A stretch of DNA of 64,000 nt, taken from Botryllus schlosseri. Its lineage: Eukaryota. Of this stretch, positions 14,673-64,000 are shown piece after piece. The notes under the pieces were generated by a model. The model worked only from the letters and a program-made list of their open reading frames with translations, ran no database searches and was not told the origin of the DNA. The position numbers and the translations under genes are program-made. The stretch covers positions 26,042,001 to 26,106,000 of the forward strand of contig CM119372.1 of assembly GCA_051294905.1 (NCBI GenBank), written 5' to 3'. Position 1 is the stretch's first letter, and each line of letters opens with the position of its first letter.

Positions 14673-16113
14673 ATCTAAAGTAAAAATTTTATTCACGCTT
14701 CGCGCAATATGTTGGCACACGATTTCTTGCTTTTAATATTGTTACTTACCCTCTCCTGAAAATGAAAAAAAAGCCTAATGTACCAGATTGAGTCAAGGTA
14801 TATTCGCAATTACGAGAGAAACTGTCGTCCAACATGCGGCCTTGCGTTTTCGCTCGTAGAAAGGCCGTCGACGATGAAACAAAGGCACAAAATGATTGAC
14901 GCACGTTGGCCGAAGCTTTCGATATCGATATGTCCAGGCGCCGAATAGCCCTGTCCTTGCAAACGCAGCCCAGCGATTTACAGCAGACCCGGAATATACT
15001 CAAGTAACAATATTATTGACCTATTAACTTTGGAAAATTTTCGCGATTGGCGCGGCTAGTGGCCCGCGCAACGTTTGGTCTATTGCAGGGGCGGGCAACA
15101 TACGGCCCGCGAAGGGATTTTGTCCGGCCCGCGGACAGTTTTCCGTCTTACATGATAATGTGGCCCGTGGCCCCTATCTGCCGATATTCCCCACTACTTG
15201 CTAACTAGGTCAAATTTTAGTGACTGTATGTTATTATGTACGCATGTGCGCAGCGTGCGAGAGTAGAGCTTACGAGTAAGTTGGTCGAAGCGAGAACTTG
15301 CATTATCGGCATTTACGATGTACTCAACCTTAATGTCGTTTGTGGTAATCATGCTGTATGCAGACTGCAATGGTCATTTACACCAGGCTGATATTTCTTA
15401 TTTTTGATTCCGTAACCGCCGACTTGTAGCACGGCACACTTCCAGGGTTTTGCAAGACACCGCTTATGCCAGGGTCGCCAACTTAAAACGGGTCACGGGC
15501 CACTTTTCAAAATTCGTAGAGGACGCGGGTCGCATGAATTCAATATCGAAATTAATTAGGCCACACATTTGAACAACGATGCTATTTATCGTCACCTACT
15601 CAACCCTAATGAATTGATATCAAGGTAAATTTAGGGCAACGGGCTTACGAACGCATTGAAATCTTAAATAGGGATTGCACCGCGAGTTGATTGATCAGAG
15701 AGCAGACATGGCGGTGCCTGTATGCAGTGGTCGGGAATCTTTTTGTCCGAAGAGCCATATTGGCCTTATTTCTTTCCATTTTACCTCCCAAAGACCCATA
15801 CATGTCGATCAGATATTACGTCACAATTGAAATTTTCTGACGTCATGGTAGTATTAATTCGAACTCGTCTACTTATCATGCTGGTTGCCTTACTTGAGCA
15901 TGCGAAACTTGAGTTACGAGAACGTAGGTTCGCCGTGATGCTCCTTTTAAATGCGAGAACCTATGATCACATGCGTATGCGACTATGCGTTGGTGGAGTC
16001 AAACATGGTCACTACGGCAATCTATAAATAGGCCTACCCAATCTAAGCTGTTAACGAAGATTTTGAAACCTTCAATTAGTATTCAATTAAATAGTATATT
16101 CATATTGAAATGA

Positions 16114-16157
16114 ACCCGAATATTTTCGGCTGACACTCGTCAGGGGTAATCGTCAGC
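16114..16157 (-). ncRNA. Minimal type I hammerhead ribozyme (mirror copy)
   Basis: Reverse complement of 16530-16573. Confidence 0.75.
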
Positions 16158-16529
16158 AACTAGTAGAGAATTGGAAAGAACATTGTATATCAACAATCGT
16201 ATCACAAAATATGACGTCACCAGCAAGAAATTTCGAATGAGAGAGCGTTCAATGTACTATTTTTAGGTGATACACGAACTCCTTTTGTTGACAGAGTTTT
16301 GGTTGGTGTATTTTGATAAAAGTTGATTCCAAGGCACACAAATGGAATTGTGCCTTGGAATCAACTTTTATCAAAATACACCAACCAAAACTCTGTCAAC
16401 AAAAGGAGTTCGTGTATCACCTAAAAATAGTACATTGAACGCTCTCTCATTCGAAATTTCTTGCTGGTGACGTCATATTTTGTGATACGATTGTTGATAT
16501 ACAATGTTCTTTCCAATTCTCTACTAGTT

Positions 16530-16573
16530 GCTGACGATTACCCCTGACGAGTGTCAGCCGAAAATATTCGGGT
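16530..16573 (+). ncRNA. Minimal type I hammerhead ribozyme
   Basis: GCTGAC-gatt-ACCC-CTGACGA-G-tGTCAGC-C-GAAA-ATAT-TC-GGGT: intact core, stem I ACCC/GGGT, palindromic stem III AATATT, 5' flank GCTGAC pairs with loop II GTCAGC; predicted cut after C16569. Confidence 0.8.
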
Positions 16574-19548
16574 TCATTTCAATATGAATATACTATTTAA
16601 TTGTATATTGAAGTTCTGTACCTCCACGAAGCTCTTCAATTAGTATTGGTATTTTCTATTGATGTTCATTGTTCATGAATGACTAGATTTGGAACATTTT
16701 TCTCCCAAATTCCCACAATTTGCATTTTATTGATCGGAAATAAAGCGCGAAACGAGAGGTAAAGGCACAGACGGGCCAAGCCTCACCATTGATAACGCAC
16801 GCAATTCATCGTAAATAGCTTAGAATTTATTATAACTGATATTAATCCAATGTAACTGTGGCACTGATTCCGAATATTCAAACACTGATCGACTTCTCAA
16901 TTCTCAAAGTATTTAGCCGTAACATATAACGTTGCGCTACACGCCTTCATTGCCAACCAAGAAAGTAGATAGCTATGGCGTTGTTTGTAAATTGAGTTTG
17001 TAATTGGGAATGTCACGTCCACGGCAGTTCATTTCGCGCCGTAGATCAGGAAGACAAAGTGTATTTTAAAACTGTGTTGTCATATTGGTGTCGCCATGTC
17101 TGCTGTTCTCTTTGATCAACCACTGTAACGAGCAATCCAAGATTTTGAGTCGGGTAGGCTACATTGAATTCGCGGGTGATATTGGTCGACAGCGCGACAG
17201 TGACGTAAATTTGAGGATTTTGAAAGGAGTTCGAGCCCCTTAACCAGAGGACGACGTTGCCTTTACCTCTCGAAGACATGTTTATACTGCCACGGGAATA
17301 ATTATTTTGATCGTGATGAAAATTTACTAACAAGTCGCTGCAACATTGACCAATTCAGTACAAAAATATTTGGCAATGAGCCATATCTTATCACCAAAAG
17401 AGCCATGTTTGGCTCGCGAGCCATAGGTTCCCGACCACTGCTGTATGGCAATGCTATATTCTCAAATACACATTGTCTTCCTCATTATCGGCGAGAAATA
17501 ACTTTGACGTGACATTGCTGTCGTTAAAATACATTCATTGAATACGATTTATTCCTTGTACATGTGATTGGCGAATAATGATGTATATCGATACAGCAAT
17601 CCGGCCCGCCAAGTACTGTATTTTCCTATATCCGGCCCGCCGACTGGAGAAGTTGCCCGCCCCTGGTCTATTGCATGAGGCCCTTGGGCGGAAAAGGTTG
17701 GCCACCCCAGGCCTAGGCCTAGGCCATGCAGAAAGTCAACAAATTGTGCTTAGTCAACTACCCAATTGTTCACATCAACGAAATTGATATACTGGGAATG
17801 CATCGATATTTAATGTATATAAACTATCAGTCGCGCGGAATCTATCTACGGAATCTATATGCGTATTGGATCATAAAAACCGAATCCGTCCGATTGCGCG
17901 TCACCATGTCTGCTATTCTTTTTGATCAATCAACGTATGGTACAATCCAAGATTTAGCTGCGCGTGATACCGGGTACATCAAATTCGTGAGAGATATTCG
18001 TCACTGGCGCGAAAGCAACTTGAATTTGAGGATTTGGAAAAGGGGTTCCGAGCCCCTAACCCTGGATACGCCAGTGTCTTGACCAATCAAAGACATGCTA
18101 ATGCTGCCACGAAAATAATTAATGTGGCCGTTAAGAAAATTTACCAACATGATGCTGCAATATTGATAAACTAACTGCAAAATTGGAAATTTGTCAAAGA
18201 GCCATGTCTTATACCCAAAAGAGTCATATATGGCTCGCAAGCCATAGGTTCCCGACCAATGTGTACAATAATATAGTACTTCTGTGAAATGTAGGGTCAT
18301 AATTAACAATATGACGTCGTGGAGTGACGTCATAGGCTTGTGTTCACGTTCTCGTTCACACGAAACAGAACGTTTTAGGGGTTTGCACCATCCCTAATAT
18401 TGACCCCTATTACATTTGATTCCTTCGCATATGATACGTACAAAATTCACATGGCAAAGGATATATATATATATGTAAACAGATACTATATAGCAACTTT
18501 ATTCAGTGCCAGACTCGATAAGAATTCTCAAAAAGATACATATCATCAGTGCTAGCGATCCATTGCTCTATTTCAAGCGAGGATAATTAACTATTATATA
18601 TTTGCACTCGCACAAAATAATCGACTACAATAAAAGAAACGGAAAACAAACGGTCGAAAGTGCAACATATATATAGAGATTTGACGCCCATCGTACGTAA
18701 TTTCTCTATGGATGTGTTACGTCAACGGCGCAGGAACTATTTTGTTCTTGGCACATATAATTGGTCGCTGATATCGGAAATTTTGTAGCACAGTGCTACC
18801 ATTCGTGTTTCTGCATTCGATGTTAATATCAAACATAACGAGCATTGTACTGTGTCCTTCGTTGATATATTCCTTACAGTCTTCAACTTGAGAAGCGTAG
18901 CCATGAGCTATTCTACTTGAGATTGGTGTGTTTGCTGAAGACCGGCATACAATCACATCTACAAAGGGGTTTTTGGACATAAGCAGCTTGTTATACCACT
19001 GTAAATAGTAGCTGAGTAAACATAGATCACATGCACAGCACGTGACCTATTAAGAAGTCTGTCAGATTGCAATATCCAATGCTAACCATCTTTAACTGGT
19101 GTAGTTCACAGATAGCCAAAGCAGTGAAAGGTTGCTAATTGTTGCTTGTAGTAAGAACGGAGCACCAATATTTTTGAAAATAGTCAGCGGAGTAGTCAGA
19201 GGCACAATGCGAATCTTATGTAATGCGGATTGACCGTTTCCCTGGGTATTTTGCGATAAATTGAATTAAAAGTTTAGGGAAACAAAAAGCACAACATGTT
19301 GACTGATACAAAAATGAAAGTCACGACATCTTTCTGTCGGCGCGCATCAGATGGCCGGAAAAGTTTGTGCCGTTCCCTGCATTTCGGCCCGCTTGTCGTA
19401 TTATCTTCTAACTCTCTTGCGACTCCTCTAGTGATTTAATATACTGTTCGTACTCTTCCATGCTCCTCTGCCACCGTTGGACTTGCTCTTCGTATTTTCT
19501 AAGAAATTAAGTAATCATGAGTTGCCCAACAGACCAATATCAGACCAC

Positions 19549-23707: not shown

Positions 23708-25249
23708 CAAGAGCGTGTAACTTTCGCAGTCCGCGGGCCGGATACAGGAAAATTAAGTACTTGGCGGGCCGGATTGCTGAATCGATACAATATTTGCCCA
23801 TTTATCCACATAATACAAGGAATAAATCGTATTTAATGAACGTCTTTTAACGACAGCAATGTCACATCACAGCCATTTCTCGCTGATAATGACGAAGACA
23901 ATGTGGATTTGAGAATAGCGTTGTCATACAGGCGCCACCATGTCTGGTTCTCTGTGATCAATCAACACACGGTGCAATCCTTAATTAAGATTTCAAGACG
24001 TTCGATAAATCCCGTACCCCAAATTTACAAAGATATCAATTCACTAGGGTTGAGTAGGTGACGAGATAGCGTCGCGTTCAACTGTGTGTCCTAATTAATC
24101 TCGATATTGAATTCATGCGGCCTGCGTCCTATACGAAATTTGAATAGTGGCCCGCGACCCATTTTGAGTTGGCAACCACTGGCATAAGCGGTGCCTTAGA
24201 AAAGCCTAGAAGTGTGCCGTGCTACATGTCGGCAGGCAGTTACGGAATCAAAAATAAGAAATATCAGCCTGGTGTAAATGACCATTGCAGTCGACAAACA
24301 CCATGATCACTAGGGCTCTTCAGAAATGACTTTTTTCTCAAATCATACTGGCTACTTGATAAAATTGTTAGATTACCTATTTTAAGCCTACACACAAAAT
24401 CTGGTTCAATTCCAGCCAGTAACCGCTTTGCTACAGGAGAAGAAAGTTTCTATTTATTATATAAAAATAAATAATAAAAATTTGAAAATTTTTTGTTCAC
24501 CCCATGAAAGTGTTAGGCTGTCTATAGAAACGATGCTCACCAAATTTGGTTCAATTCCAACCAGTGGAAGCGGAGTTATTGCCGTCGAAAAATTTGGATT
24601 TGAATAAAATAGTATTTACGGTGACCGATTCTTTGTTTATTTATTATAGTTGTGCTCACCGTAAATACTATTTTATTCAAATCCAAATTTTTCGACGGCA
24701 ATAACTCCGCTTTCACTGATTGGAATTGAACCAAATTTGGTGAGCATCGTTTCTATAGACAGCCTAACACTTTCATGGGGTGAACAGAAAATTAAAAAAA
24801 AAATTATTATTCATTTTTATATAATAAATAGAAACTTACTTCCCCCGTAGCAGCAAAGCGGTTACTGGCTGGAATTGAACCAAATTTTGTGTGTAGGCTT
24901 AAATTAGGTAACCTAACAATTTTATCAAGTAGCCAGTACGATTTGAGAAAAAAGTCATTTTTGAAGAGCCCTAATGATCACCACAAACGACATTCGGGTT
25001 AAGTACATCGTAAATGCCGATAATATAAGTCTTCTGTCTTCGACGAACTTACGCGTAATCTCCACTCTCGCACGCTGCGCAGTGCGCATACATGTATATA
25101 ATAACATACAGTCACTAAAATTGGACCTAGTAAGCAAGTAGTAGGGAATCTCGTCGGACATGGGCCGCGGGCCACTTTATGATGTAAGACGAAAAACAGT
25201 CCGCGGGCCGGACAAAATCTCTTCGCGGGCCGTATGTTGCCCGCCCCTG
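23708..25249. mobile_element. Composite hAT MITE (inverted sister of 15086-17665)
   Basis: TSD CTATACGG at 23700-23707 and 25250-25257; right end GTTGCCCGCCCCTG. Confidence 0.8.
24311..24973. mobile_element. Fold-back (fully palindromic) MITE
   Basis: ~315-bp imperfect arms around a loop at 24625-24655; termini TAGGGCTCTTCA / TGAAGAGCCCTA; TSD ATGATCAC. Confidence 0.85.
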
Positions 25250-36724: not shown

Positions 36725-38605
36725 CACTCTGGGCAGAACTACATGATGTTACTTATTCTTAATCACGCATGGTAACGCATGGTCATTGCACTCATTACGA
36801 CTGTCATATATTCCTTACTAAAAGCACCACAAATTGGTAGTACTATAAAACGTAGATTTTATCGCTCCAGCGGTATGGCACAATGTCACTGTCAGACTAT
36901 AAATCACGCATGCGTGAGTAATTATGCCACTGGTAAAGCCCCGTAAGCCAAAACATTGCCTTGTTCACATCATACTTCCGATTCTATGAACAAACTCGAT
37001 CGACAATGATACGAGATAGGGTTGCATTTAAAATAAATAGTATTTTAAAGCAGCACTATTCGACCTTTTTCGGAATGGTACGCCCTTTTAACGTTTACGC
37101 AAATCCTGTGCACCCCAGTTCACCAGATACACCGAATCCTTACTAATCCTAATCGGATTCAAGATTAATAAGGCTGGTATAGGAAATGCTAATGCTAAAT
37201 ACCTATCATCGACCAAAATCCCGGACCACGATCTAACACAATGGTTCGCAATCGGGGGACAACTATGCATTTTCAGGGGTGCCGCGAGAGAGAGAGATCA
37301 GATTTATTTTCGCCTGGACCGTCGAAATACTTTGGCAATGGAGATACGATACAACCTTTAAGCAGAGGTGGTCAGTAACGAAGTACTTCTACTTTTTCGA
37401 AGTACTCAAGTAGTTTTCCTCTATTTCTGGTACTTACTCAAGTAGATCTTTTTTCGCTACTTCTACTTCGTAATGTTTTGTGAACTACTTACTTACTTTT
37501 CGCTATTTTCAGTTTGTCAAGTAGAAGTAGTTTAATCCCCCTATAAGAAATATAGCCGAAGGAATTTTTCGGCTGTTTTCACGTAGTACCAACATTTAAT
37601 TTCCATAAAAGTTATCTAATACCCAGAATTTTCGTTGCGCTTTGCGCACAGTAGAGATGGAGTAGGAACTATGTTTAACCAAAGATATCGCTGAATATAA
37701 TTTAGATACCGTGTTGCGTGGTTCCGTTCACACCGCATTGCCACCTATACCAAATATTTCATCACAGTAAGTATGGCTCCCATAACGTTCGAAACTACCG
37801 TTTCGCAATCTAGCGAATACCTATTATACCTAGCAGCCCATGACGTGTCCTAATCTGGAAACGTGGACTTTGACTTTTTTTAAAAAACTTTAGACCTGTT
37901 TTAGCAGACCACCGTTCAAACTTTCTGAACAAAAGACATGAAATATATTTTCTGCTTTTTAGAAGTAGTATTTGCATTTTTCTTTCAATTACGAGTATTA
38001 TACGTGGAGTTCTAATTATAGTTTTAGTTTTTTTGTCTGTAGAACATGCATGTTGAAGTATAAGAGCAAGTGTAGTAATGCCTTTATGTTTTTCGAAAAT
38101 AAAGCAATACACTATATGACATTTTTACGGTCTGCCATCTTTTAATTAACGTATACTAATCGTGCACAGTGTTAAAGCCTTATTCGACACAACTTCTCCG
38201 TATTGCTCTTCGACTGAACTAGGGGCCTCACAATATGGGGGAGGGCGCCATGCCATGATATTCTCTAGATGGGGTGTTCGAGTAAACAAAGGATTAGTAT
38301 CGCATTTCGATATCAATACTATCATTTACATCCCATGATGAGGACGACTGCTTATTCTGTCAAAAATTGACACCTCTTGGGATGCATCAATATGAATCGA
38401 GCTCTCTGCACCTTCCACATAGCTCCATTTGCAGCTTTTGACAGTTCATGCGAACGATTTACTTGAGTAGATTTAAAGTCAGTCAATTCTACTTCTACTT
38501 CAAGTAGTTTTAGAATTCTTATGCAAGAAGTACTTCTACTCGTACTTGAATAGATTTTTTTCGTCGCTACTTCTACTTCTACTTGAGCAGCTTTCTTGAC
38601 TACTT

Positions 38606-39157
38606 TAACGAAATATATTGGTATAATGCCATCTTAATAATAGTCAATAAGGAGTTGGTAGAACTTACGTAATTCCCTGGACTGAGACCTGATAAGACAT
38701 GTGTGAGTCGTTTATTTGTCGTGTGAATGATAGATAAGAAGTATAAATCGTACGACGTTGGGTTCATTTCGAGATATACGTGTGTATGTATACATTCGTG
38801 GTGATTATTAGCTGGTTCGGAAGTTGATATACATTCATGATTATTAGCTGGTTCGGAAGTCGATAGACATTCATAAGTACTTCGCCAATTGCGAGAAATA
38901 TATATTGCATTTTGAACTGTACGTGATATTCAATAAAGTTACAAGTCGGGGAGACGGAAACAAAATATATTCGTCAGTGTGATCCATCGAATACGTGTGC
39001 CATAGACAGGCTTCGGGGTACGTCAGCCAACAAGGTCGTATACGGCGTAGTTAGGCCGGTCCGTCGAACGAAAGAAGAAACACGCAGCGAATTGTAAACG
39101 CAACCTTCTTGGAGTCAGATATACAATTATACAACTACAAACGTTCGCTCTGCGTTA
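38606..39157 (+). repeat. Putative 5' LTR (TAACG...CGTTA termini)
   Basis: Lies between the insertion junction and the PBS; terminal inverted repeat; AATAAA at 38932; internal ~38-bp tandem duplication at 38789-38874. No second LTR is available to confirm it. Confidence 0.6.
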
Positions 39158-39160
39158 AAG

Positions 39161-39177
39161 TGGTGACCTTCCGACGT
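39161..39177 (+). promoter_or_regulatory. Primer-binding site, tRNA-Trp-like
   Basis: TGGTGACC-TT-CCGACGT versus the complement of the animal tRNA-Trp 3' end, TGGTGACCCCGACGT (recalled, unverified). Confidence 0.65.
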
Positions 39178-39781
39178 TCAATCAATCAAGACCGACCGGC
39201 CGACCGACCGAAGACAATAAATATAAAGATTCGTCTTGCACAGCGGCGAGAAAGACCATACGCATCGCACGACGGTGAAAACGTTCAATCAACAATCAGT
39301 GACGAGGACAGATAACAAAAGTCATCGCGACGTTCTCGCAAGAAGAATTGACAACGAAGAGCGCCTGCGCAGAAGATACGGAGGATTGTACCATATTTGA
39401 AGTTAAGTTGCTTTCCCGGACAGGGTTTTGCATTTATTTCAATTGCAGAGACGGCGTTGTTTAATGGAGCTGTGTCTGTTTTCGAAATAATTGTTTTAGT
39501 ATGAGTATCGAGCTATGTGGTGAAATTGTGTTGTTTGGGAAGTTTTCATGTCCGTTGAACAGGTTAATTATAATTAGAAATTGCTAGTAAGTTTGTGTGA
39601 ATTCCGTATTGTTCATTGTAATTTTGTTTTTCAGTGATATAGCCATTATTTCGTGGTAAAGTCTGAGTTGGCGTTTATGCCGGAATATTCGTCTGTGTGC
39701 AGTGCGACATTTGCGTGTACGGGCAACGAAAAGGTAATCATTTTCAATCCTCGCATGAGCAATTGCTATTCACTGTCATAA

Positions 39782-40699
39782 ATGGAAGTGGAAACTAGTG
39801 ACAGCGAACCGGTGGCTAGAAGAAGAGGCAGAAGGCGCGAGATCACTATCAATAGACCTTTTAACAAACAGGAGCCGGCGCGGTATTTCAGACTGCTAGA
39901 ACATCAGCTCGAGGGCGAGAATGTACGGTCGCAAAAATCTAAATATCTCATTTTGTTGAGGAACTTGAATGACGCGCAATTCGCCGCTATTGACGGAAGT
40001 GTTCCTAGCTCACATGATCCAAATTGCTACGATTTGCTTAAAAAAGTTCTGTTGGACCGTTTTGATGTTCCGATTAATCAGAAGTTGAATAACTTTTATG
40101 CCGAGGTAGTTCCGGGTATGAATCCCAGAGATTTGCGATCGCGGATTATTGAGTGTGCGGGTGCCGATAATTCACCGCATATGGCGGGGTTCAAACGCCA
40201 CATGTTCTTGCAGTACTGCAGGCCCGACATCGCTTTCGCATTACGTGGACATTATAGAGATGATTTTGATACAATGTGTCAGCGCGCGGTTGAGCTGTTT
40301 AATGGGGGGTTGAATCCGGGTAATAACTCCATTCAAACTAATGAAGTAAGTGTGGCAAAACCGGAAAAGGAGCGCGCGGTTGTAAGAGCTGAGGAAGATA
40401 CACAGTTTATCGAGTCGATAAGTAAGCAACTTGCTAGGATGGAGAAGCAAATGGCGGAATTGAAATTGGATGATGTTAAAGTGCAACCAAGTGATGATAG
40501 CGATAACTCTTTGAACCATTCTCCCATGACGCAGAATAGGGCTGAGTCAAACCGCGGAGGCACGCGATATTATCGGGGCGGCAACGTTGGTACCCGAGGT
40601 GGCAGTAATACTGAATGGGTATGCCAGAATCATCACCGATATGGTGATCGGAGCTTTTCAGCCTATCGTGAACGTAAATGTGTTGGTCGTAGTTCATGA
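39782..40699 (+). CDS. gag: Gag protein
   Basis: 305-aa ORF upstream of pol; YDLLKKVLLDRF capsid-like motif; RGG tract; degenerate Cys/His box CQNHHRYG...C. Confidence 0.85.
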   Translation: MEVETSDSEPVARRRGRRREITINRPFNKQEPARYFRLLEHQLEGENVRSQKSKYLILLRNLNDAQFAAIDGSVPSSHDPNCYDLLKKVLLDRFDVPINQKLNNFYAEVVPGMNPRDLRSRIIECAGADNSPHMAGFKRHMFLQYCRPDIAFALRGHYRDDFDTMCQRAVELFNGGLNPGNNSIQTNEVSVAKPEKERAVVRAEEDTQFIESISKQLARMEKQMAELKLDDVKVQPSDDSDNSLNHSPMTQNRAESNRGGTRYYRGGNVGTRGGSNTEWVCQNHHRYGDRSFSAYRERKCVGRSS

Positions 40700-43600
40700 C
40701 TATATGGCAGTGGTTTCTATCCAAGTGGTCCAAGTATTAATTCTTTTGATTTTGAGTATTTGGCTTATGCGTTTGATAAATTAAATGGTTTGAATTTCTT
40801 GAGTGACAGTGGTTCCATGATTTCTAATTTACCAGCGAGTGAACATGTGATTCGGCACTATACGCCGAAGTGGCAATTTCGGGGAGCAAATGGTTCCGTG
40901 ATTAATGCGTATGGCACTAAGACTTTGATGTTGCAGTTTGGTGATAATGAACCACTTGAATGTCCTTTTGTAATAACCGAAGTGTCGAAGCCAATATTGG
41001 GCTGGAATTTTATGAAAAAGCATAAGTTGCTTTTAGATCCGGAACTGGATGAACTCGCGACTCGTGACCGCAGTACTGTAATAAAATTGTCTCAAAATAA
41101 ATTTTCGTCTCTTGTCGCGCATATCGACGCGAGTGAACGCACGCCATACGCTGAGTTACTTAAAGAGTTCCCGGAAATCTTGGTCCGGCAACCTGTTAAA
41201 CGGCGCGAAATGAAACATGTCATGCGAATAAAGACGTTCGGTTATCTAAAATCTCCGAAGCCACGTTCAATCCCACCCCAGTATTTGTTAGAAGTTCGGC
41301 GGCAAATCAAAGATATGTTAGAGCGCGGTGTGATTTCAAAATCGGATTCGGATTTTTGCTCGCCGATCGTGTGTGTTCCTAAACAGAGTCACGTTGAGGG
41401 GAAACCTCCCGGTGTGCGGTTGTGCATCGATTATCGTTATTTGAATTCTCATGTGGCTCCTCAGTGTTATCCATTACCGAATATTGCATCGATGCGTACA
41501 CAAATGGCAGGGGCCAAGGTATTTTCCACTCTCGACATAGCAAGCGCGTACCACAACATTGAGGTGGCGGAGTCAGACCGCCATTTGACAGCGTTTTATG
41601 CTAAAGAAATCGGTAAATTTCAGTACAATGTGTGTCCGTTCGGTTTTCGGTCCAGTGGGGATCAATGGTGTAAATTGGCTTACGAGTTGCTTGGGGACAT
41701 TCCTAATACTTTTCTGTATTGTGACGATATTGTGGTAGCGACGCCTGACGAGAAGTCTCATTTGGAGACGTTGCGAGTAATTTTTGAGAAATTGAAGAGT
41801 GAGTCCCTTTCGTTGTCTATTGAGAAGTGTAAGTTCGGAGCAGAGTCAGTTCGATTTTTGGGGTTTTTAATTGACAAAGATGGCATCAGACCAGATCCCA
41901 AACGAGTTGAGGCGATTGTGAAATTTCCAGTGCCAAAGACTATTCGTGAGGTGAGAAGGATGATCGGCATGATCAACTATTATTCGAGGAGTATCAAGAA
42001 TTGCTCGTCTATTATGCAACCGCTCTATGATTTATTGAAGGGAACTAATGCTCGGAGTAAGCTCAAATGGTCCAGTGTGGCGCAGAATGCATTTGAGCAG
42101 ATCAAAGAAGCTTTGATAGATGCAGCGAGATTGGCTTTTCCGACATTCAAAGGACCTATACAGCTTGTGACAGATGCCAGTCAAGTTGCATTGGGCGCAG
42201 TAATCAATGAGTACCAGAATGGGAGATATGTACCTCTGGCTTTCTTCAGCAAGAGTTTAACTGAGTCTCAGCGAAAATGGTCAGCTGTGAAGAGAGAGAC
42301 GTACGCTGTATACATGGCTCTGCAGCATTTTCGAGATTTTTGCATGGGCAGGTCAGTGAGCCTTGTCACAGACAGTCAGGTGTTGGCTAAGATGATTATC
42401 AATCCGAAGGAATGTGCGGACCCGGCTATGTTTCGGTACCTTGAGTACATTAATTACTTTGTGAACAAAACTACATGTATCCGCGGTATTTTCAATTCCG
42501 TTTCCGATTGTTTGTCTCGTGTTGAGATTAATGAATTTATTGTGCCAGATGGCTTGAAACCTGATTTTATAAAGCGTATTGCAGCTGCACAGAGGCAAGA
42601 CAAGGAATTGGCAGAATTTCGCGAGCGTACTTTGGCTGAGACTGGTTTGCAGTTAAGAGAGTTGAAACTGCTGGGGTGTGAGACGGGCGTTGTTTGTCAC
42701 GTGCCTGATTCCACCGATAAATCCCAGAAGTTTTCTGTAATTCCACGAGTGTGGGTTCCACGTCATATGAGACGGGAATTGTTTGAACATGTACATTCTC
42801 TTTCGCACCCCGGAATGCGCGCGACGTTAGCATTGGCTAAACGGCATTATGTGTTCCCTAACATGGACAAATGGTTACGAGAATCAGTGAGGGCATGTCC
42901 GATGTGTAACAAAAGTAAAATTATTCGTCATGTACGCTCCGCATTAAAGCATGTGCCGCGACGTAGTGATCGCAATGCTGACATTTCAATTGACATCGCT
43001 GGTCCGCTTCGTGAAACGGAAGATGGTAATCGATATTTTCTTATCATCGTTGATCGTGTAACAAATTACACTAATGCAGTCCCCATGAAAAGACAAGATA
43101 CTGACACGGTGATCCGTGCTTTGATAAATGGTTTTGTGAAGGATCGCGGAGCACCCATGGTGATAAGGTCCGACCGTGGTTCAGTGTTTACATCGTATGA
43201 ATGGGAAAAGTTCATGTCGGTGCTTGAATGTAAGCATTCATTTTCGTTGGCACTTTCGCCACAGCAGAATTCGATCTCCGAGACGGGGATCCGGCGAATA
43301 AAGCGCGGTTTGCGTTGCGCTAATAATCCCGCAGCATGGGATCGGCTATTACCTTTTGTGATTTTGTCATTGAATGCCTCGGTGCGAGAGGGATATGATT
43401 ATTCCGCGGCGGAAATGACCTATGGGGAAAATGTGCGCTTGCCGGGAACTTATTTTGAGTATGACCCGAATAAGTTCAAGAATAGTCAAGCAGAGGTACT
43501 TTGTGATGTGCGCGAATTTTTCGAAAACTTGAATTTCAATAAGAGCAACATACGGACGAATGTAAATTCGTACGTCCCGCCAGATCTTATGGCTTGTTCA

Positions 43601-44122
43601 CATGTATATGTCAAAAATGAGAGAGGTAAAAAGACCGCTTTTGACTTCTGGTATGTGGGCCCGTACAGGGTGATCGAGAGATCGCAATCGGGCAAGGCCT
43701 TTACCTTGTTAATCAAGGGAAAGGAGAAGGCTGTCTCGATTGACAGGCTGAAAGTGTGTTACTTTCCTCCATTTGATGTAGATAACGACATGTTCGATGA
43801 TTTTGTGCAGCAGTTTCCGCCCGTTGATGCGGACAAAGTGGTACAAAACTCCGCGGTAGATACGGGCGACGCGTGTGTAGTGTCGTCTAGTTGTGATGAC
43901 AGCGGTAGCGACTGTCCGGGTAGTGTTGGTGACGCGTCTCGAGAGCGAATATCTGATGGCTTACCTGTTGAAGTCGATCGCGATAATAATGGGCATGAAT
44001 CCAAATCTAAGACCCAAACATGTAATGAAGGCAGAACTCTCAACGAGTCAAGTACAAGATATACGTCCAGAGGGAGACGAATTGTTAGACCAAGACATTT
44101 GAATGATTATGTGTTGCAGTAA
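40700..44122 (+). CDS. pol: Pol polyprotein (protease, RT, RNase H, integrase)
   Basis: FLSDSGS protease; RLCIDYR, CPFG, YCDD for RT; TDAS for RNase H; HSLSH...CPMC, ISID, SDRG, GPY for integrase. Open from the codon after the gag stop, with no ATG before the protease site. Confidence 0.95.
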   Translation, partial: LYGSGFYPSGPSINSFDFEYLAYAFDKLNGLNFLSDSGSMISNLPASEHVIRHYTPKWQFRGANGSVINAYGTKTLMLQFGDNEPLECPFVITEVSKPILGWNFMKKHKLLLDPELDELATRDRSTVIKLSQNKFSSLVAHIDASERTPYAELLKEFPEILVRQPVKRREMKHVMRIKTFGYLKSPKPRSIPPQYLLEVRRQIKDMLERGVISKSDSDFCSPIVCVPKQSHVEGKPPGVRLCIDYRYLNSHVAPQCYPLPNIASMRTQMAGAKVFSTLDIASAYHNIEVAESDRHLTAFYAKEIGKFQYNVCPFGFRSSGDQWCKLAYELLGDIPNTFLYCDDIVVATPDEKSHLETLRVIFEKLKSESLSLSIEKCKFGAESVRFLGFLIDKDGIRPDPKRVEAIVKFPVPKTIREVRRMIGMINYYSRSIKNCSSIMQPLYDLLKGTNARSKLKWSSVAQNAFEQIKEALIDAARLAFPTFKGPIQLVTDASQVALGAVINEYQNGRYVPLAFFSKSLTESQRKWSAVKRETYAVYMALQHFRDFCMGRSVSLVTDSQVLAKMIINPKECADPAMFRYLEYINYFVNKTTCIRGIFNSVSDCLSRVEINEFIVPDGLKPDFIKRIAAAQRQDKELAEFRERTLAETGLQLRELKLLGCETGVVCHVPDSTDKSQKFSVIPRVWVPRHMRRELFEHVHSLSHPGMRATLALAKRHYVFPNMDKWLRESVRACPMCNKSKIIRHVRSALKHVPRRSDRNADISIDIAGPLRETEDGNRYFLIIVDRVTNYTNAVPMKRQDTDTVIRALINGFVKDRGAPMVIRSDRGSVFTSYEWEKFMSVLECKHSFSLALSPQQNSISETGIRRIKRGLRCANNPAAWDRLLPFVILSLNASVREGYDYSAAEMTYGENVRLPGTYFEYDPNKFKNSQAEVLCDVREFFENLNFNKSNIRTNVNSYVPPDLMACSHVYVKNERGKKTAFDFWYVGPYRVIERSQSGKAFTLLIKGKEKAVSIDRLKVCYFPPFDVDNDMFDDFVQQFPPVDADKVVQNSAVDTGDACVVSSSCDDSGSDCPGSVGDASRERISDGLPVEVDRDNNGHESKSKTQTCNEGRTLNESSTRYTSRGRRIVRPRHLNDYVLQ

Positions 44123-44732
44123 ATCGCGTAGAATAAAGATATGCGTGATGAAAATTGTGCCTTGTGCATTAATACGCTGTGTAAATGCAGGATTGCTGCA
44201 CCATCGATCGTTGAATCGCGTAAAGTAAAGATATGCGTAGTGAAAAGCGTGCTTTGTGCATTGATATATGATGTAAATGCAGGATTGCTGCATCATGTTG
44301 TGACTCCCGTTGTAGAATGTAAGGTGAGGTCACCGAAGCTCGTTGCTGAAGTATGCGTTGTAGTAATATGTGCGGACATCAAAATGTTTTGCTCGTGTAG
44401 GCCCGCTTATGCTTCACGGAACTTGGCGTCATATTTGAAATCGTCACTGTAGGGTAGAATGGTTGTTGAATTGCTGTAAGCCCTCTGTTGTTACGTACGA
44501 ACAACACGGCTAGGTTATTATGCATTGTACGGACCACCTCTGCCTTTAAATAAGGCCTTTCGCAGTTTGCACCACCAATTTTCTCTTCCGTGCTATCCGC
44601 GGATGCTCAGCGGCTAGCGGGATAGCCGCGGATATCATTTTTTCGAGTCTTTAGTCTGACCCGGCCGGGGATTGAACCCACGATCAACCGATTTCGAAGT
44701 CAGACGCATCACCATCCGCCATTACACTACCA

Positions 44733-44915
44733 GTGACGAGATAGCTTACTTGTAAAATCCACAGCTGCAATATCAATGGGTCGCGGGTTCGAGTCCGACC
44801 GAGGTCAACTCCAGAATTCCTACCTTAGTGTTAGAGGTTTATCTCGGCTCCTCCTTGCCATATCATCCGTGAAAGCGGTGTCTTATAAAAGCCTAGAAGT
44901 GGCCGTGCTACAAGT
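44733..44915 (+). mobile_element. SINE family B variant
   Basis: B-box GGTTCGAGTCC; matches 10831-11085. Confidence 0.7.
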
Positions 44916-45159
44916 CATTACAAACAAATCACTACACTATATCGCTCGGCGAAACCATTAAATCTGCAATCTGAATATTAATAAACCAATATGTTATTTT
45001 GTAAGCTATAGGGTAGGTCATATGAAACAATTTTGTCTTCATGGCCGCTTGAGATCAAATATCCTACTTTGTCAGCTGGATATATTGAGCCATGTGGTGC
45101 ACACCAGTACACACCATCCAAGCGGCACAGCCTTTGAAAGATTATGGTACACCTCAGGG

Positions 45160-53279: not shown

Positions 53280-54290
53280 CTATAGCGATGCAGGTGCATC
53301 TTTTTGAGAGGGTGAAGTCGCGGTAGCTGACACCAGATTACCTTGATCTTCAGACGAAATTCGTCTGCAACACAACAACGCGCGAAATCTACTGAGACGA
53401 GATTCGTGAATTTCGTAACCGGCGCCATCGTCAGACTGACCAGCTTCAACCGCACGTTTTGACTTCACGCAAACTATGACGACATAGGCACTAAATAGTA
53501 GAAATATCATGCCCACGACAGCGGTCACCACTATCAATGCGATGGATAGTTGCTTTGTATCGAGCGTGGGGTCGCACTTCAGTGTCGCAATGGCGTCCAG
53601 AATCATTTTATGCTGCAACGCCCTCGGATAGTTACATTCCCAATTGTCTATTCCTACCGCAATTCCCTTATGCTCAACAATCCAATTAGTGAAAGGAACA
53701 AGTTCGCAATCGCACAAAAAAGGGTTGAGTGATAAGTCTAGTTTCAGAACGGTTGTATTTGATAAGACATCACGGCTAACGGTACGCATTTGGTTCGACT
53801 GCAAATCCAGACTTCGCAATTTCGGTAGTAACATGTCTAGTCGTGTGGAAATGTTCAAAATTTTGTTTGATGAAAGTACAAGATTTTTCAAATTCGGTAT
53901 TATGATATCGACGAAGTTTTTAATTTGATTTTGATCTAAATTTAGGGTTTCCAGTGCTTCACTGTGTCTGAATATAGTAAAGTCAAAATTCGTAATCAAA
54001 CAATTCGACAAATCTGCGGATTTCAATCGCCGTAAACCTCTTACATTTGTCGGTGGAATAACAACCAATGGATTATGATTCGCAACGAGGTGTTCTAATG
54101 ATTCGGTAGAAATGCGAGGGAAATGTGTAAGGTTATTACTCGATATGTCAAGATATAGAAGACTCGGTAAATCAAAGGGATGCACGAAAATAATGTTGTT
54201 ATTGCTGAGAACTAATTTTCTTAGTCGGTTCATATTTGCAAACGTCCCGAGATATAGAATTTCCAGGTGGTTGTCGTCCAAGTCGAGGAT
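53280..54290 (-). CDS. Last exon of LRR transmembrane protein: LRRs, LRR-CT, TM helix, short tail
   Basis: LxxLxLxxN repeats; NPFLCDC...WECNYP...LKC; hydrophobic LSIALIVVTAVVGMIFLLFSAYVVIVCV; cctttgcag acceptor, phase 0. Confidence 0.9.
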   Translation of the reverse strand: MLDLDDNHLEILYLGTFANMNRLRKLVLSNNNIIFVHPFDLPSLLYLDISSNNLTHFPRISTESLEHLVANHNPLVVIPPTNVRGLRRLKSADLSNCLITNFDFTIFRHSEALETLNLDQNQIKNFVDIIIPNLKNLVLSSNKILNISTRLDMLLPKLRSLDLQSNQMRTVSRDVLSNTTVLKLDLSLNPFLCDCELVPFTNWIVEHKGIAVGIDNWECNYPRALQHKMILDAIATLKCDPTLDTKQLSIALIVVTAVVGMIFLLFSAYVVIVCVKSKRAVEAGQSDDGAGYEIHESRLSRFRALLCCRRISSEDQGNLVSATATSPSQKDAPASL

Positions 54291-54684
54291 CTGCAAAGGA
54301 AAGAGATAGGAATCATAAAGTTCTGAACGCAACACTATCGTCCAATTTTGTGCCGCGATGGAACATCTCAATATATATACAATACATGAATGATGGGGCA
54401 TCATTCCGATTGAAAAGCGTTATGGGCATGACTTGTTTTATATTTTGAAGCGTTTCGCCTGTATTATTTGCTAACCAGCTTTGTAATTGTATCCCTCCGC
54501 ACAACATTAAAGTCACTCACTTTCCTTTGGATGCCCAGGAGCAGGAGGAAGGGGGCAGAAATAAAATACCGGTATTACGGTATATCATATTTGACCTGAC
54601 GGAGAGAGTAGGTATATTGGCATCACATATCCTGGGGTGGTTCAACACTGAGAGCTTTGGAAGCCAAGAGTTTAGAGTTTAGAC

Positions 54685-55597: not shown

Positions 55598-56377
55598 GTT
55601 TAGACTTTCAATCGACTAACTTTCATCAGCATTTTATATTCGTGATATGTATATCACGACAGATGAACCACATATATGCCGCATCCGTGACTTTGTCCCA
55701 CCACACAAATCCCGTCTCTCACTGATGGCTCGGTACGTTTTTGACCTTTCTTCAAAACTTAGCGCGAAATTACCAATCCGGTCATGACCACACCTGTTCG
55801 CATATAGTTCAGGATATGTTCTTCGATCGAGCACCATAAGAATCGAACCAATGTATTGACTGGTTGGCCGGCAAGAAAGTGGACGAACCAAGTTAACAGT
55901 TAACTTATTATTTCATAGATTACTTTCCTTCCGATAGTAATTTCTATCGCTGAGATGATGTGTCTTCAAGAGTAAGAATTTTGTCAATATGAGTTGCAAA
56001 TATTTGAATAATATGTAGAAACAAACGACTTGATAAGTAAAGACTAAGTGAGTAATAGTATAGTAAGTAAGTGAGTAAGAGTATTGTAAGTAAAAGTAAA
56101 TGTGCCTAGTTTTAAACGGAGCAGGAGATAGGTGCGGCTAATTCGGAAATATACATTATGATATTGTGGAATATGGTAAACCGAATTGATTATTATTATC
56201 GCGCCCACGATGATAATAAAATTCAGTATTCAGAATTCAGAATTCAGAACAGAAATGATGCTACTATTCAAATATTTAGAGTGCTAATGGAGTAAATATG
56301 ATTGGGCACCTGACAAGAAATAGACCCTTCCGTCATGCAGTATGTTTCCGCAATACTACAAGTCTCGTATGATTTAC

Positions 56378-56962
56378 CTCCAACTTTTCCATGTGATTTA
56401 GTGAAGTTGGTTCAATAATCTCGATGGCATTCGAGTTCAGCTTGAGACTCATCAAATTCGCGAGTCCGGCAAACGTCTTTTGATGAATAAGAGTTAGCAG
56501 ATTCACTTGAAGATCCAGAGCTTTCAAACTATTCAGAGTTACAAACGCGTCCTCTTCGATACTGGCCAAAATATTGCGAGACAGATCCAAAGTAGTCAGG
56601 TGACGTACGTCGATGTCAATCTCTATGTACACAGTATTTCTGGTCAGTGCTTGAATTTTATTGTCGTTGAGACGCAATTCCTCCAGCATCGTAAGATTGC
56701 TGAATGCGAAGTCCTCGATTTCCACGATATCACCGTACGCCAGCGACAGGAAGATCACGTCTCGAAGGTTCTGCAGTTGTTTTCGTGTAACATTGATAAC
56801 TTTTGAATCGGTCATGTCCAACCACTTCAAGTTGTTAGGAAATGTGGGCATTTTGCTGAGCTGATTGTGCGATAAATCGAACGTTGATATATTCACAAGA
56901 CAGTCCAGTGCGTCCACTGATATTGTATCCAGTTTTGCGTTGGACAAATTCAAACTTTGTAT
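56378..56962 (-). CDS. LRR gene exon (about 8 LRRs)
   Basis: IQSLNLSNAKL...MEKLE; cacag / gtaaat; 585 nt, phase 0-0. Confidence 0.9.
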
Positions 56963-58573
56963 CTGTGATGTAAATTTCAATTGGTAATATTAGAAACGGC
57001 CACGATAGGAATGGTTACATTAGTCACGACATTTCCCTATTTAGGGATATTAGAGTTCACATACATAACTTGTGGCCTAAATATATTACTTAAAAGTTTT
57101 AAACGAAACTGCCATAGCATTAACGTAGAATGATTTAAAAACTATAAAGCGAAAATGCAAGTACGTTGATTTCAATTTGTTCACAATTATCCAAATATCG
57201 TGGGGAGTAAAACCCAATAACCGATGTTTTGTAGCTACTAATTACCAGAAATACTCATGTCGGAAATGATTACGATCGCTATGTTGAAACCGACGAAAAC
57301 TCTCTCCCTATCTCACATACAGACAAATACCGGTACACACTCACAAACACAGAGTCAGTCAAAACATTGCACTTAAAAAATTTTGACTATCACCAATATC
57401 ATAAAATCCACGGCTTCTCACAAACTCAATGTAGGTCTTGATCCCAAATGGAGTCGCGAAGAAATGTTTTCGGGAGTCACGAAACTTTATCTGTCACTAA
57501 ACCATCGATGCAATCTACAGCTTTTGTTCAATCAGTTGACCAATACGTTTGTTGCGAATTGTTTTCCAGGCCGGTCAAGTGATCGTCAAGCTCAAGTCAA
57601 GTACAAATGATATGGTCATTACATCAATCTCTACCAAGCCATTAACCTAGTAAAACAAACAAACAAAACTCGCTCCTCTCGGCCTTCTGCGTTCGAGAGT
57701 CAATATCGTATATGCCAGGCTCATACGATTACGCATAGTTCGGTTGGGAATTGGGTATTGGGCTATATTGCGACTGGTGAGAATATCGCGTGTTTTAGGA
57801 TTCCTCTTGTGCCGTCATAAAGCATATATTATGTTCCACTATACCTGTCATCAGTGAATCTAAAGAAATCCAAGAAGTGTTCATTGGCATGAATAACGAT
57901 GGTGGGGCAGGGCAAGACTTCTACAGGGACAATTGTGCTGCAGTGACTTTTAAATAGAAATGGGACAGTCCTGTCACAATGTTTCCAAATTTCATCGTCC
58001 CTTTTCTAGAACTTTTCTAGCTTTTCCTCACTACTCGATTTGAAAAAGAATAATAATCCAAACCGATTGGATATATAGTATGCGGCGTGAGAGTTTCTCT
58101 ATGTATAAGCAAACCAAGAATTGGTGGCTTAATTTTGTCAATGACTTAATTTGGTTGTAATGATACTATGATGCCATTTTACAATATTTTGCATGCGTCG
58201 TTGCTACCAATGGAATATAACCACGAGTTATTTCATATTTGTAATACGTCGAGTCCGAGTCAAGTACATATATTTTAGGGTAGTGATTCTGGTCAAGGCA
58301 CTTGAAAAATGTGACTCGAGTCATCCTAACATTGCTTACAATACTGTTGGCTTTTGTGATGACTAAATTGTGAATATATCCGCCTAGTATACTATATAAT
58401 CCCCTGGAATGCAGATAAAGTTTACATAAGTGATAAATACACTGAGACTGAAACAATGTTATTTACTTCCTGTGGCAATTGTAGACAGTGTGTACGGGAA
58501 AATGTCATGAAATTTGAAAGGGTGCGAGTGCTTAAAAGGTTAGAACTTATGTTTTGGATTGCTGATTACCCAC

Positions 58574-62798: not shown

Positions 62799-64000
62799 GC
62801 AGGGGTGGGCAAACTACGGCCCGCTACGCCGTTCTGTGCGGCCCGCGAGAGTCCAAAGAAACTTTTTAAAAAATTTGATAAAATGAGTACTAAAAATCGA
62901 ATTAATGCATGGACTTGATTAACTTTTTCTTAATATATTTCACCATGATAATTCTAAGACAGTTGTTTTCAAACTGGTGGGCGCGCCCTTCTTGGGGAGA
63001 GAGAGAAAGAGAGATGATATTCTTTTTCGCCTGCACCATCGAGATGCTTTTGACGACGGAGTTGCGATACGGCCCCATGAGGTCATCTAGTCTGCGCCCC
63101 CGTTTTTTTTTCTCCTCCATGCTATCCGAGATTGCTGAGCGCCTAGCAGGATAGCTGCGGATACCAATTTTCGAGTCTTTTGTATGACCCGGCCGGGGAT
63201 CGAACCCACGACCTACCGCTCGAGAAGCCGGACGCATAACCATTACACTATCTCGCTCGGTGGGGGCGTGAAAGCATCTGAAGATGGGCACGAAGCTGAG
63301 GTAAACTGAAAAAAAATTTCGCGCTCGGCGCGATTTTAATCCAATTCATAGTTATTGCTATGTATTTAGTCTGAATTACATATTTGAAAATCTCTCATCC
63401 ACAGTCGTAACCTTCCATGGCATCAAAACCCGTTAGGTTTGCTAGCATCCTGTTTGCGTTTTGTGATATGACGGTGAGGGGGGCGCGAAATCTCTGACCA
63501 TCATACGGGGGCGGGGCGTGTCTTAAAAAGTTTGAGAACCACTGATCCAAGGTAAATACTTAATATCACAGCGGGATAGCTGCAACGAGATTGACATAAT
63601 TTGGATCACCAGTGGGATTTCAGATTGGCCACTTCATTTTCATTTATTTCAGTGATATGCTTATAAAAAACGATTCGGGCGTGTCTTAGGTAGATTCGTT
63701 GTCTGTATGCGTAGAATGGGGGTATTTATATTTTATCTACACATAGTAGAAGCGTGTTTGAAGCTAACTGGTTATGATGCTGTCAGCATTGTGTGTCCTG
63801 GAACTGAGCCAAAAGTAGAATTCGAAAAATCTATGAACAGATCGCTGCTCACAGATTTATATTTCAATCCTGTTCTAAGAATCGGGCCAACCGACTTTCA
63901 ACTCTATAGTTTTAAAAAATTGGTTATTGAGGTCCGCCAGCCTATGAAATCTCGCCACTATATGTTTCTAACGCATGTACGATATCATCAAAGCAATATT
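62799..64000. mobile_element. hAT MITE running off the window, with a nested MITE (~62960-63544) and SINE
   Basis: Starts CAGGGGTGGGCAAAC; similar to 45160-46956. Confidence 0.65.
62997..63260 (-). mobile_element. SINE family A, near full length
   Basis: A-box TAGTGTAATGG, B-box GGTTCGATCC, central CATACAAAAGACTCGAAAATTGGTATCCGCAGC..., (TC)n tail. Confidence 0.8.

Follow-up and report, generated by a model that had tools for sequence, protein, structure and literature searches.

A Ty3/gypsy LTR retrotransposon lies in the window, the whole stretch of 64,000 nucleotides of Botryllus schlosseri DNA that was analysed. Its gag and pol genes share one reading frame and are separated by a single TGA followed by CTA, and the features described below make it likely that the family produces Gag-Pol by programmed UGA readthrough. 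With less confidence, we lean towards a broader reading, in which a deep-branching animal lineage beside the CsRn1 clade would have independently swapped the ancestral -1 frameshift for structure-free UGA-CU readthrough, converging on the signal of the fission-yeast element Tj1. The coding features and the junction are:

39782..40699, forward strand: gag, 305 aa, with a DUF7041 (PF23055) domain (E 1.3e-7, above the cut-off)
40622..40681, forward strand: degenerate CHCC-type nucleocapsid knuckle, third Cys missing in the window copy
40697..40702, forward strand: candidate readthrough signal, an in-frame TGA with CTA after it, kept across copies (TGA-CTG in a diverged subfamily)
40700..44122, forward strand: pol, 1140 aa, with no ATG of its own ahead of the protease
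Asp codon at 40805 (D-S-G), within 40700..44122, forward strand: pol protease
YCDD at 41717, forward strand: pol RT (domain match)
DAS at 42173, forward strand: pol RNase H (domain match)
H2C2, rve, and GPY at 43658, forward strand: pol integrase (domain match and motif)

The gag reading frame runs from the ATG at 39782 to the TGA at 40697-40699 (305 codons), and the pol frame, which is the gag frame, goes on with CTA TAT GGC until it is closed by a TAA at 44120-44122. Decoding of the stop would give a Gag-Pol fusion of 1446 codons. The order of the pol domains downstream of gag (PR-RT-RH-IN) is the Ty3/gypsy layout. The TGA is the sole stop in the gag-pol frame across 40300-41300; a TCN serine codon lies directly 5' of it, and the +7 base after it is U, compared with the stronger UGA-CUAG. 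A first-pass annotation of this DNA had described gag and pol as in frame and split by one TGA-CTA, and all its coordinates hold, the frame being open to 44122. It had also stated that no ATG precedes the catalytic Asp: the first in-frame ATG past the TGA is indeed at 40817, four codons downstream of the Asp codon (40805), and the residues ahead of this ATG correspond to the first protease strand, which is conserved in relatives. A frameshift is unneeded, as the annotation had argued, gag and pol being in the same frame; no X-XXY-YYZ slippery heptamer was found in 40400-41000, and -1 frameshifting is ruled out for the window element.

Counted from the first Cys in the knuckle-like motif, the stop is 25 codons further on, and it lies 36 codons ahead of the protease Asp. 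In relatives with pol in the -1 frame, the gag stop is 22-47 codons past the first knuckle Cys, and the Cys-to-Asp distance (61 aa in the window) is 40-66 aa in 17 fused proteins. Single-base changes can create a stop in gag-pol by 591 routes, of which 6 fall in the knuckle-protease linker, one gives TGA-CTR and none does both; the first-pass annotation had held that chance would rarely place a stop at the nucleocapsid/protease boundary.

The stop was then followed in other copies. Part of the element was present in 20 of the 24 runs listed, which come from 9 studies. Contigs were aligned to 40300-41200 (901 bases) at 80% likeness for three runs, X1 (446 contigs), X9 (38) and X13 (55), which represent three studies and two organism labels, X9 carrying the second; X1 may be the source of the window itself, and X13 was taken as RNA by guess. 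No variant was found at 40697-40702 in the best-supported 40 of 143 rows from these runs; a minority of copies may carry a sense codon there. Record 13 of X13 covers 40613-40733 with 0 differences; record 20 of X9 covers 40484-40753 with 5 differences, four placed away from the stop and one unplaced, and most differences of record 18 of X9 are unplaced. Contigs about 80% identical to the window represent a second, diverged subfamily, in which the TGA is in exact register and followed by CTG, a junction that rests on two single contigs among the loose-end rows listed, one in X1 (at 40706) and one in X13 (at 40720). Compared with the window, 18 of the 44 letters of 40676-40719 are changed in this subfamily (by-eye count), and the serine codon before the TGA is changed in its third base only.

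Because TGA-CT is common to both sides of the subfamily split, the stop is older than this split of about 20% divergence. In conclusion, the TGA is an inherited, family-level feature and not a private mutation. Comparison of sister copies for the stop context, proposed in the first-pass annotation, therefore showed TGA-CT to be kept, also in the subfamily about 80% identical, among the best 40 of 143 rows. The depth of this conservation reaches about 80% nucleotide identity, no relative above about 40% identity having been found outside the host runs. In one X9 contig of the diverged subfamily, 112 letters of the gag linker (40491-40604) are swapped for 193, marking a length-variable region of Gag.

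Sequence changes downstream of the stop were mostly silent. Within 40700-41200, 24 of the 29 listed variants are synonymous, compared with 21% expected at random (p 3e-12), 5 are non-synonymous, and none of the 29 creates a stop past the TGA; these counts use the best 40 of 143 rows, and many of the variants share the one subfamily split and are not independent events. Purifying selection acts on pol downstream of the stop in the TGA-bearing lineages. Before the TGA, 4 of 11 listed variants are synonymous and 7 non-synonymous; unlike pol, the Gag C-terminus is variable, in its altered knuckle as well as in these 7 of 11 gag variants.

In the mechanism that we propose, most ribosomes would end at the UGA and release the 305-aa Gag, while a few percent would decode the UGA via a near-cognate tRNA, aided by the CU context. 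The resulting 1446-aa Gag-Pol would be packaged via its Gag part and then cut by the protease, so that the proportion of Gag to Pol would be governed by readthrough, as it is by -1 frameshifting in relatives. The signal may reside mainly in the local context, because no downstream fold stands out: a stimulatory structure 3' of the TGA, suggested earlier as a feature to look for, was not found in single-sequence folds (z +1.49; z -1.3 to +2.1 over 30 windows). In the available part of PMC13517186, downstream structure is described as only conditionally required for UGACUA. The first-pass annotation had inferred a Gag-Pol of about 1446 aa made by UGA readthrough; its layout, the conservation of TGA-CT and selection on pol all support this, and the decoding itself is what we infer from them.

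Against readthrough, a phase-matched donor/acceptor pair is present on paper:

40346..40756, forward strand: candidate alternative splice pair, phase-0 GTAAGT donor at 40346 and phase-0 GAG acceptor at 40755-40756, skipping the stop in frame

A minor splice from the donor at 40346 (or at 40382) to the acceptor ending at 40756 would fuse residues 1-188 of Gag with the complete protease. The donor (GAA/GTAAGT) is at phase 0, with 0.2 such hexamers expected in gag, and the acceptor, which has 10 pyrimidines out of 12 and a branch-like TTAAT at 40737, is the only phase-0 AG among the 5 that occur from the stop to the Asp. However, it is a GAG and not a YAG, and three letters at 40382 are missing in many copies. 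The spliced joint is absent from the listed contig rows, including those of X13, in which an unspliced contig spans the stop; on the other hand, contigs lose rare forms and X13 is RNA by guess only. Splicing would also leave the in-frame position of the stop, its identity as TGA and the kept CT unexplained, and we consider it unlikely to be the source of Pol.

Separate synthesis of Pol is another option: a subgenomic or trans-spliced RNA could be translated from a non-AUG start, the TTG at 40760, or ribosomes could reinitiate once past the gag stop. Initiation at 40760, a codon with G at +4 and 15 residues before the Asp, would yield a near-complete protease, but the T at -3 makes the context weak; the T>C change at this position (CTG), present in all three covered runs and in many copies, is equally a plain synonymous Leu change. 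Precedents of a kind are given in the available text of two sources, which place a minor promoter in the Tca2 junction (PMC2194720) and 60-165 bp between the ORFs of same-frame Anopheles elements (PMC2582038). However, a free Pol requires another path into particles, and the conserved CT after the TGA is not accounted for, which makes separate synthesis of Pol quite improbable.

The stop could be an old inactivating mutation, in copies that spread passively with Pol from an unseen fused or frameshift sister family. The window copy, with its degenerate knuckle and without a recognisable 3' LTR, would fit such a history, decayed relatives with in-frame stops (such as locus L028) are known, and variants at the stop were judged from the best 40 of 143 rows. 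Nevertheless, all 1140 pol codons are open, the listed variants are synonymous in 24 cases out of 29, the stop was in place before a split of about 20% divergence, and random nonsense reaches the linker by 6 and TGA-CTR by 1 of the 591 routes, so that a defect of this age is very doubtful. Finally, reading of the UGA as selenocysteine, or its RNA editing, accords with the identity of the codon but is extremely improbable, the TGA site being a variable linker with no conserved Cys or Trp position and a comparison of 38500-45000 with Rfam finding nothing at E up to 1.

We searched for relatives of the element. HMMER over 1.84 billion representatives gave a top identity of 41% among the 150 matches listed, an integrase-region search of shorter proteins gave one match (36% identity), and a search for Gag homologues gave no match. 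Close relatives were not found by DNA scan in viral contigs or prokaryote genomes, nor in metagenomes with a single-protein query. With a five-row alignment as query, 545 of 606 metagenome stretches were confirmed, and 78 loci of 28-37% identity were retained, several of which are near-duplicates. In these loci pol is in the -1 frame in 67 cases and fused to gag in 4; one carries a stop within the protease, and the remaining 6 were unscorable. A loose match to a slippery heptamer is present in 66 of the 67 loci with pol in the -1 frame. The TGA-CT junction of the window was shared by none of the 72 scorable loci: gag ends with TGA in 6 of the 67 -1-frame relatives, and CT follows in none (by-eye count). 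In locus L028 an in-frame TGA occurs within the protease, 4 codons ahead of the Asp; it was taken as a sign of decay.

In a quick tree built from 93 RT-RNase H rows, for which 11 of the 78 loci were dropped because of short alignments and in which no named CsRn1 reference was included, the window element was the long-branched sister to 72 CsRn1-type rows (SH-aLRT 96, end branch 3.2). Because of this long branch outside the CsRn1-type rows, we provisionally file the element as CsRn1-related and not as a member of the clade. In two near-identical CsRn1-type loci, L053 and L058, gag is fused to pol and the knuckle begins with C-x-N-H, much as in the window element; these loci are not its nearest relatives in the tree. 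Two others, L067 and L068, carry a tandem peptide repeat before the protease, at the expected site of the knuckle.

The remaining parts of the element are:

38620..39159 (left edge approximate), forward strand: probable 5' LTR, ending in AAA, TATA-like at 38742 and 38899, AATAAA at 38932
39161..39174, forward strand: primer-binding site, tRNA-Trp-like over its first 8 bases (TGGTGACC; 8-mer match)
44122..44296, forward strand: tandem pair of 83-nt repeats at 92-nt spacing, 83% identical, directly after pol

The first 8 bases of the primer-binding site fit the CsRn1-clade consensus, as given in the available part of PMC2582038, and the related loci, the bases after the eighth diverging; this 8-mer is the commonest PBS-like match in the 78 loci (47 matches). 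The same source describes AAA ends in CsRn1-type LTRs. The earlier LTR reading had to be corrected: no LTR pair was found for this copy in the 64 kb window, and although both ORFs are intact, the 20 kb downstream contain no 3' LTR that would pair with the 5' LTR-like region. The window copy looks 3'-truncated and, with no 3' LTR found and a degenerate knuckle, may be inactive. The Gag zinc knuckle described earlier was likewise revised to a degenerate CHCC type: C-x2-H is present, the third Cys is absent from its canonical place, and CX2HX9CX3C is not matched. The interior of the knuckle differs among other copies. No env ORF and no chromodomain match were found in the window element.

The leader of 620 nt before gag contains six short upstream ATG ORFs (2-34 codons, 39464-39781), which may damp gag translation or splice out from a GTAAGT at 39587. 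Dispersed repeats begin at about 44580, beyond the 83-nt tandem pair. Elsewhere in the window, leucine-rich-repeat ORFs (LRR_8) on the minus strand at 53280-54419 and 56333-56989 are probably exons of host receptor-like genes; a perfect inverted repeat of 259 nt around a 10-nt loop (16080-16607) and a nested inverted-repeat block (24304-24980) are probably foldback or MITE-like elements; and a dispersed 86-nt repeat with a tRNA-box-like core (68-153, 44640-44725, 63168-63253) is probably a SINE.

The element resembles members of the CsRn1 clade (CsRn1, PwRn1, AgCR1-14) in the start of its PBS and its AAA LTR end, as far as these are documented in the available text of PMC2582038 and PMC3630058. 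It is also like them in its CHCC-like knuckle, GPY integrase and lack of env, and its RT-RNase H groups with CsRn1-type loci. It differs by its long branch beyond the sampled clade, by 40% identity at best and by the degenerate knuckle of the window copy; an imperfect CHCC motif is also reported for 3 of the 14 AgCR elements in the part of PMC2582038 available. The same text describes six Anopheles AgCR elements whose gag and pol share a frame and which descend from an ancestor with a -1 frameshift, and its counts are inconsistent (9 plus 6 of 14 AgCR elements). It places 60-165 bp between the two ORFs, and the portion available gives neither the stop context nor readthrough. A 2003 survey, as summarised in the accessible part of PMC5009743, counted pol in the -1 frame in 28 of 51 animal elements.

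The closest parallels for the junction are fungal. In the fission-yeast Ty3/gypsy elements Tosmo1-3, Tcry1 and Tj1, GAA-TGA-CT(A/G) lies between gag and pol, an arrangement interpreted as programmed readthrough, according to the available text of bioRxiv 10.1101/2022.12.06.519325, and Tj1 lacking the stop is reported not to transpose (PMC4600332, also available in part). As in these elements, one in-frame TGA is followed in the window family by CTA or CTG and then by an AUG-less pol. The fission-yeast elements, as described in those sources, are fungal, self-priming and Tf1-related, with GAA before the stop, whereas the window element is from an animal, its PBS is of the tRNA type, its Gag is of the DUF7041/CHCC type, and its stop is preceded by TCN. 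The signal of the window element most likely arose independently of the fission-yeast elements, which are absent from our tree.

Other systems share part of this arrangement. Gag, a stop and pol follow each other in one frame in Candida Tca2 and in gammaretroviruses. Readthrough in MLV uses UAG and a pseudoknot. For Tca2, the available part of PMC2194720 reports that the flanks failed to direct readthrough in S. cerevisiae, and a gag-UGA-pol junction by itself may therefore not direct it. The UGA-CUA hexamer is that of the Type II viral signals of Sindbis (UGA-CUA-ACC) and PSIV (UGA-CUA-UGU), the window sharing UGA-CUA-U with PSIV, for which the available text of PMC13517186 describes no stimulation by downstream structure. 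The carriers of these Type II signals are RNA viruses, and alphaviruses add an extended stem-loop, which was not detected in the single-sequence folds of the window element. Rice gypsy elements are named as readthrough candidates in the accessible part of PMC2754532.

Readthrough as a mechanism is already known, in the Gypsy superfamily as elsewhere in biology, and the novelty implied by the first-pass annotation for UGA readthrough in Gypsy was overstated, the fission-yeast TGA-CTA/CTG elements and the same-frame gag and pol of Anopheles CsRn1-like elements being already described, as far as the available parts of these sources go. No explicit account of UGA-CU readthrough in Gypsy or CsRn1 elements of animals turned up in the literature searched, which leaves out most subscription journals and Repbase entries. 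What is new is a probable independent switch from -1 frameshifting to readthrough in an animal CsRn1-related lineage.

If the reading is correct, this would be, within the literature searched, the first animal Gypsy element for which UGA-CUR readthrough between gag and pol is made explicit. It would add an animal case to the few Gypsy elements in which stop-codon readthrough apparently fixes the proportion of Gag to Pol, and would point to readthrough in the same-frame CsRn1 elements of Anopheles too. As 67 of the 72 scorable relatives sampled have the -1 layout, the window lineage and these relatives would form a natural pair for asking how recoding strategies replace each other, and the minimal UGA-CU signal is offered for readthrough tests in an invertebrate chordate. 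For annotators, the finding would be a warning that such elements are not dead on account of the TGA alone.
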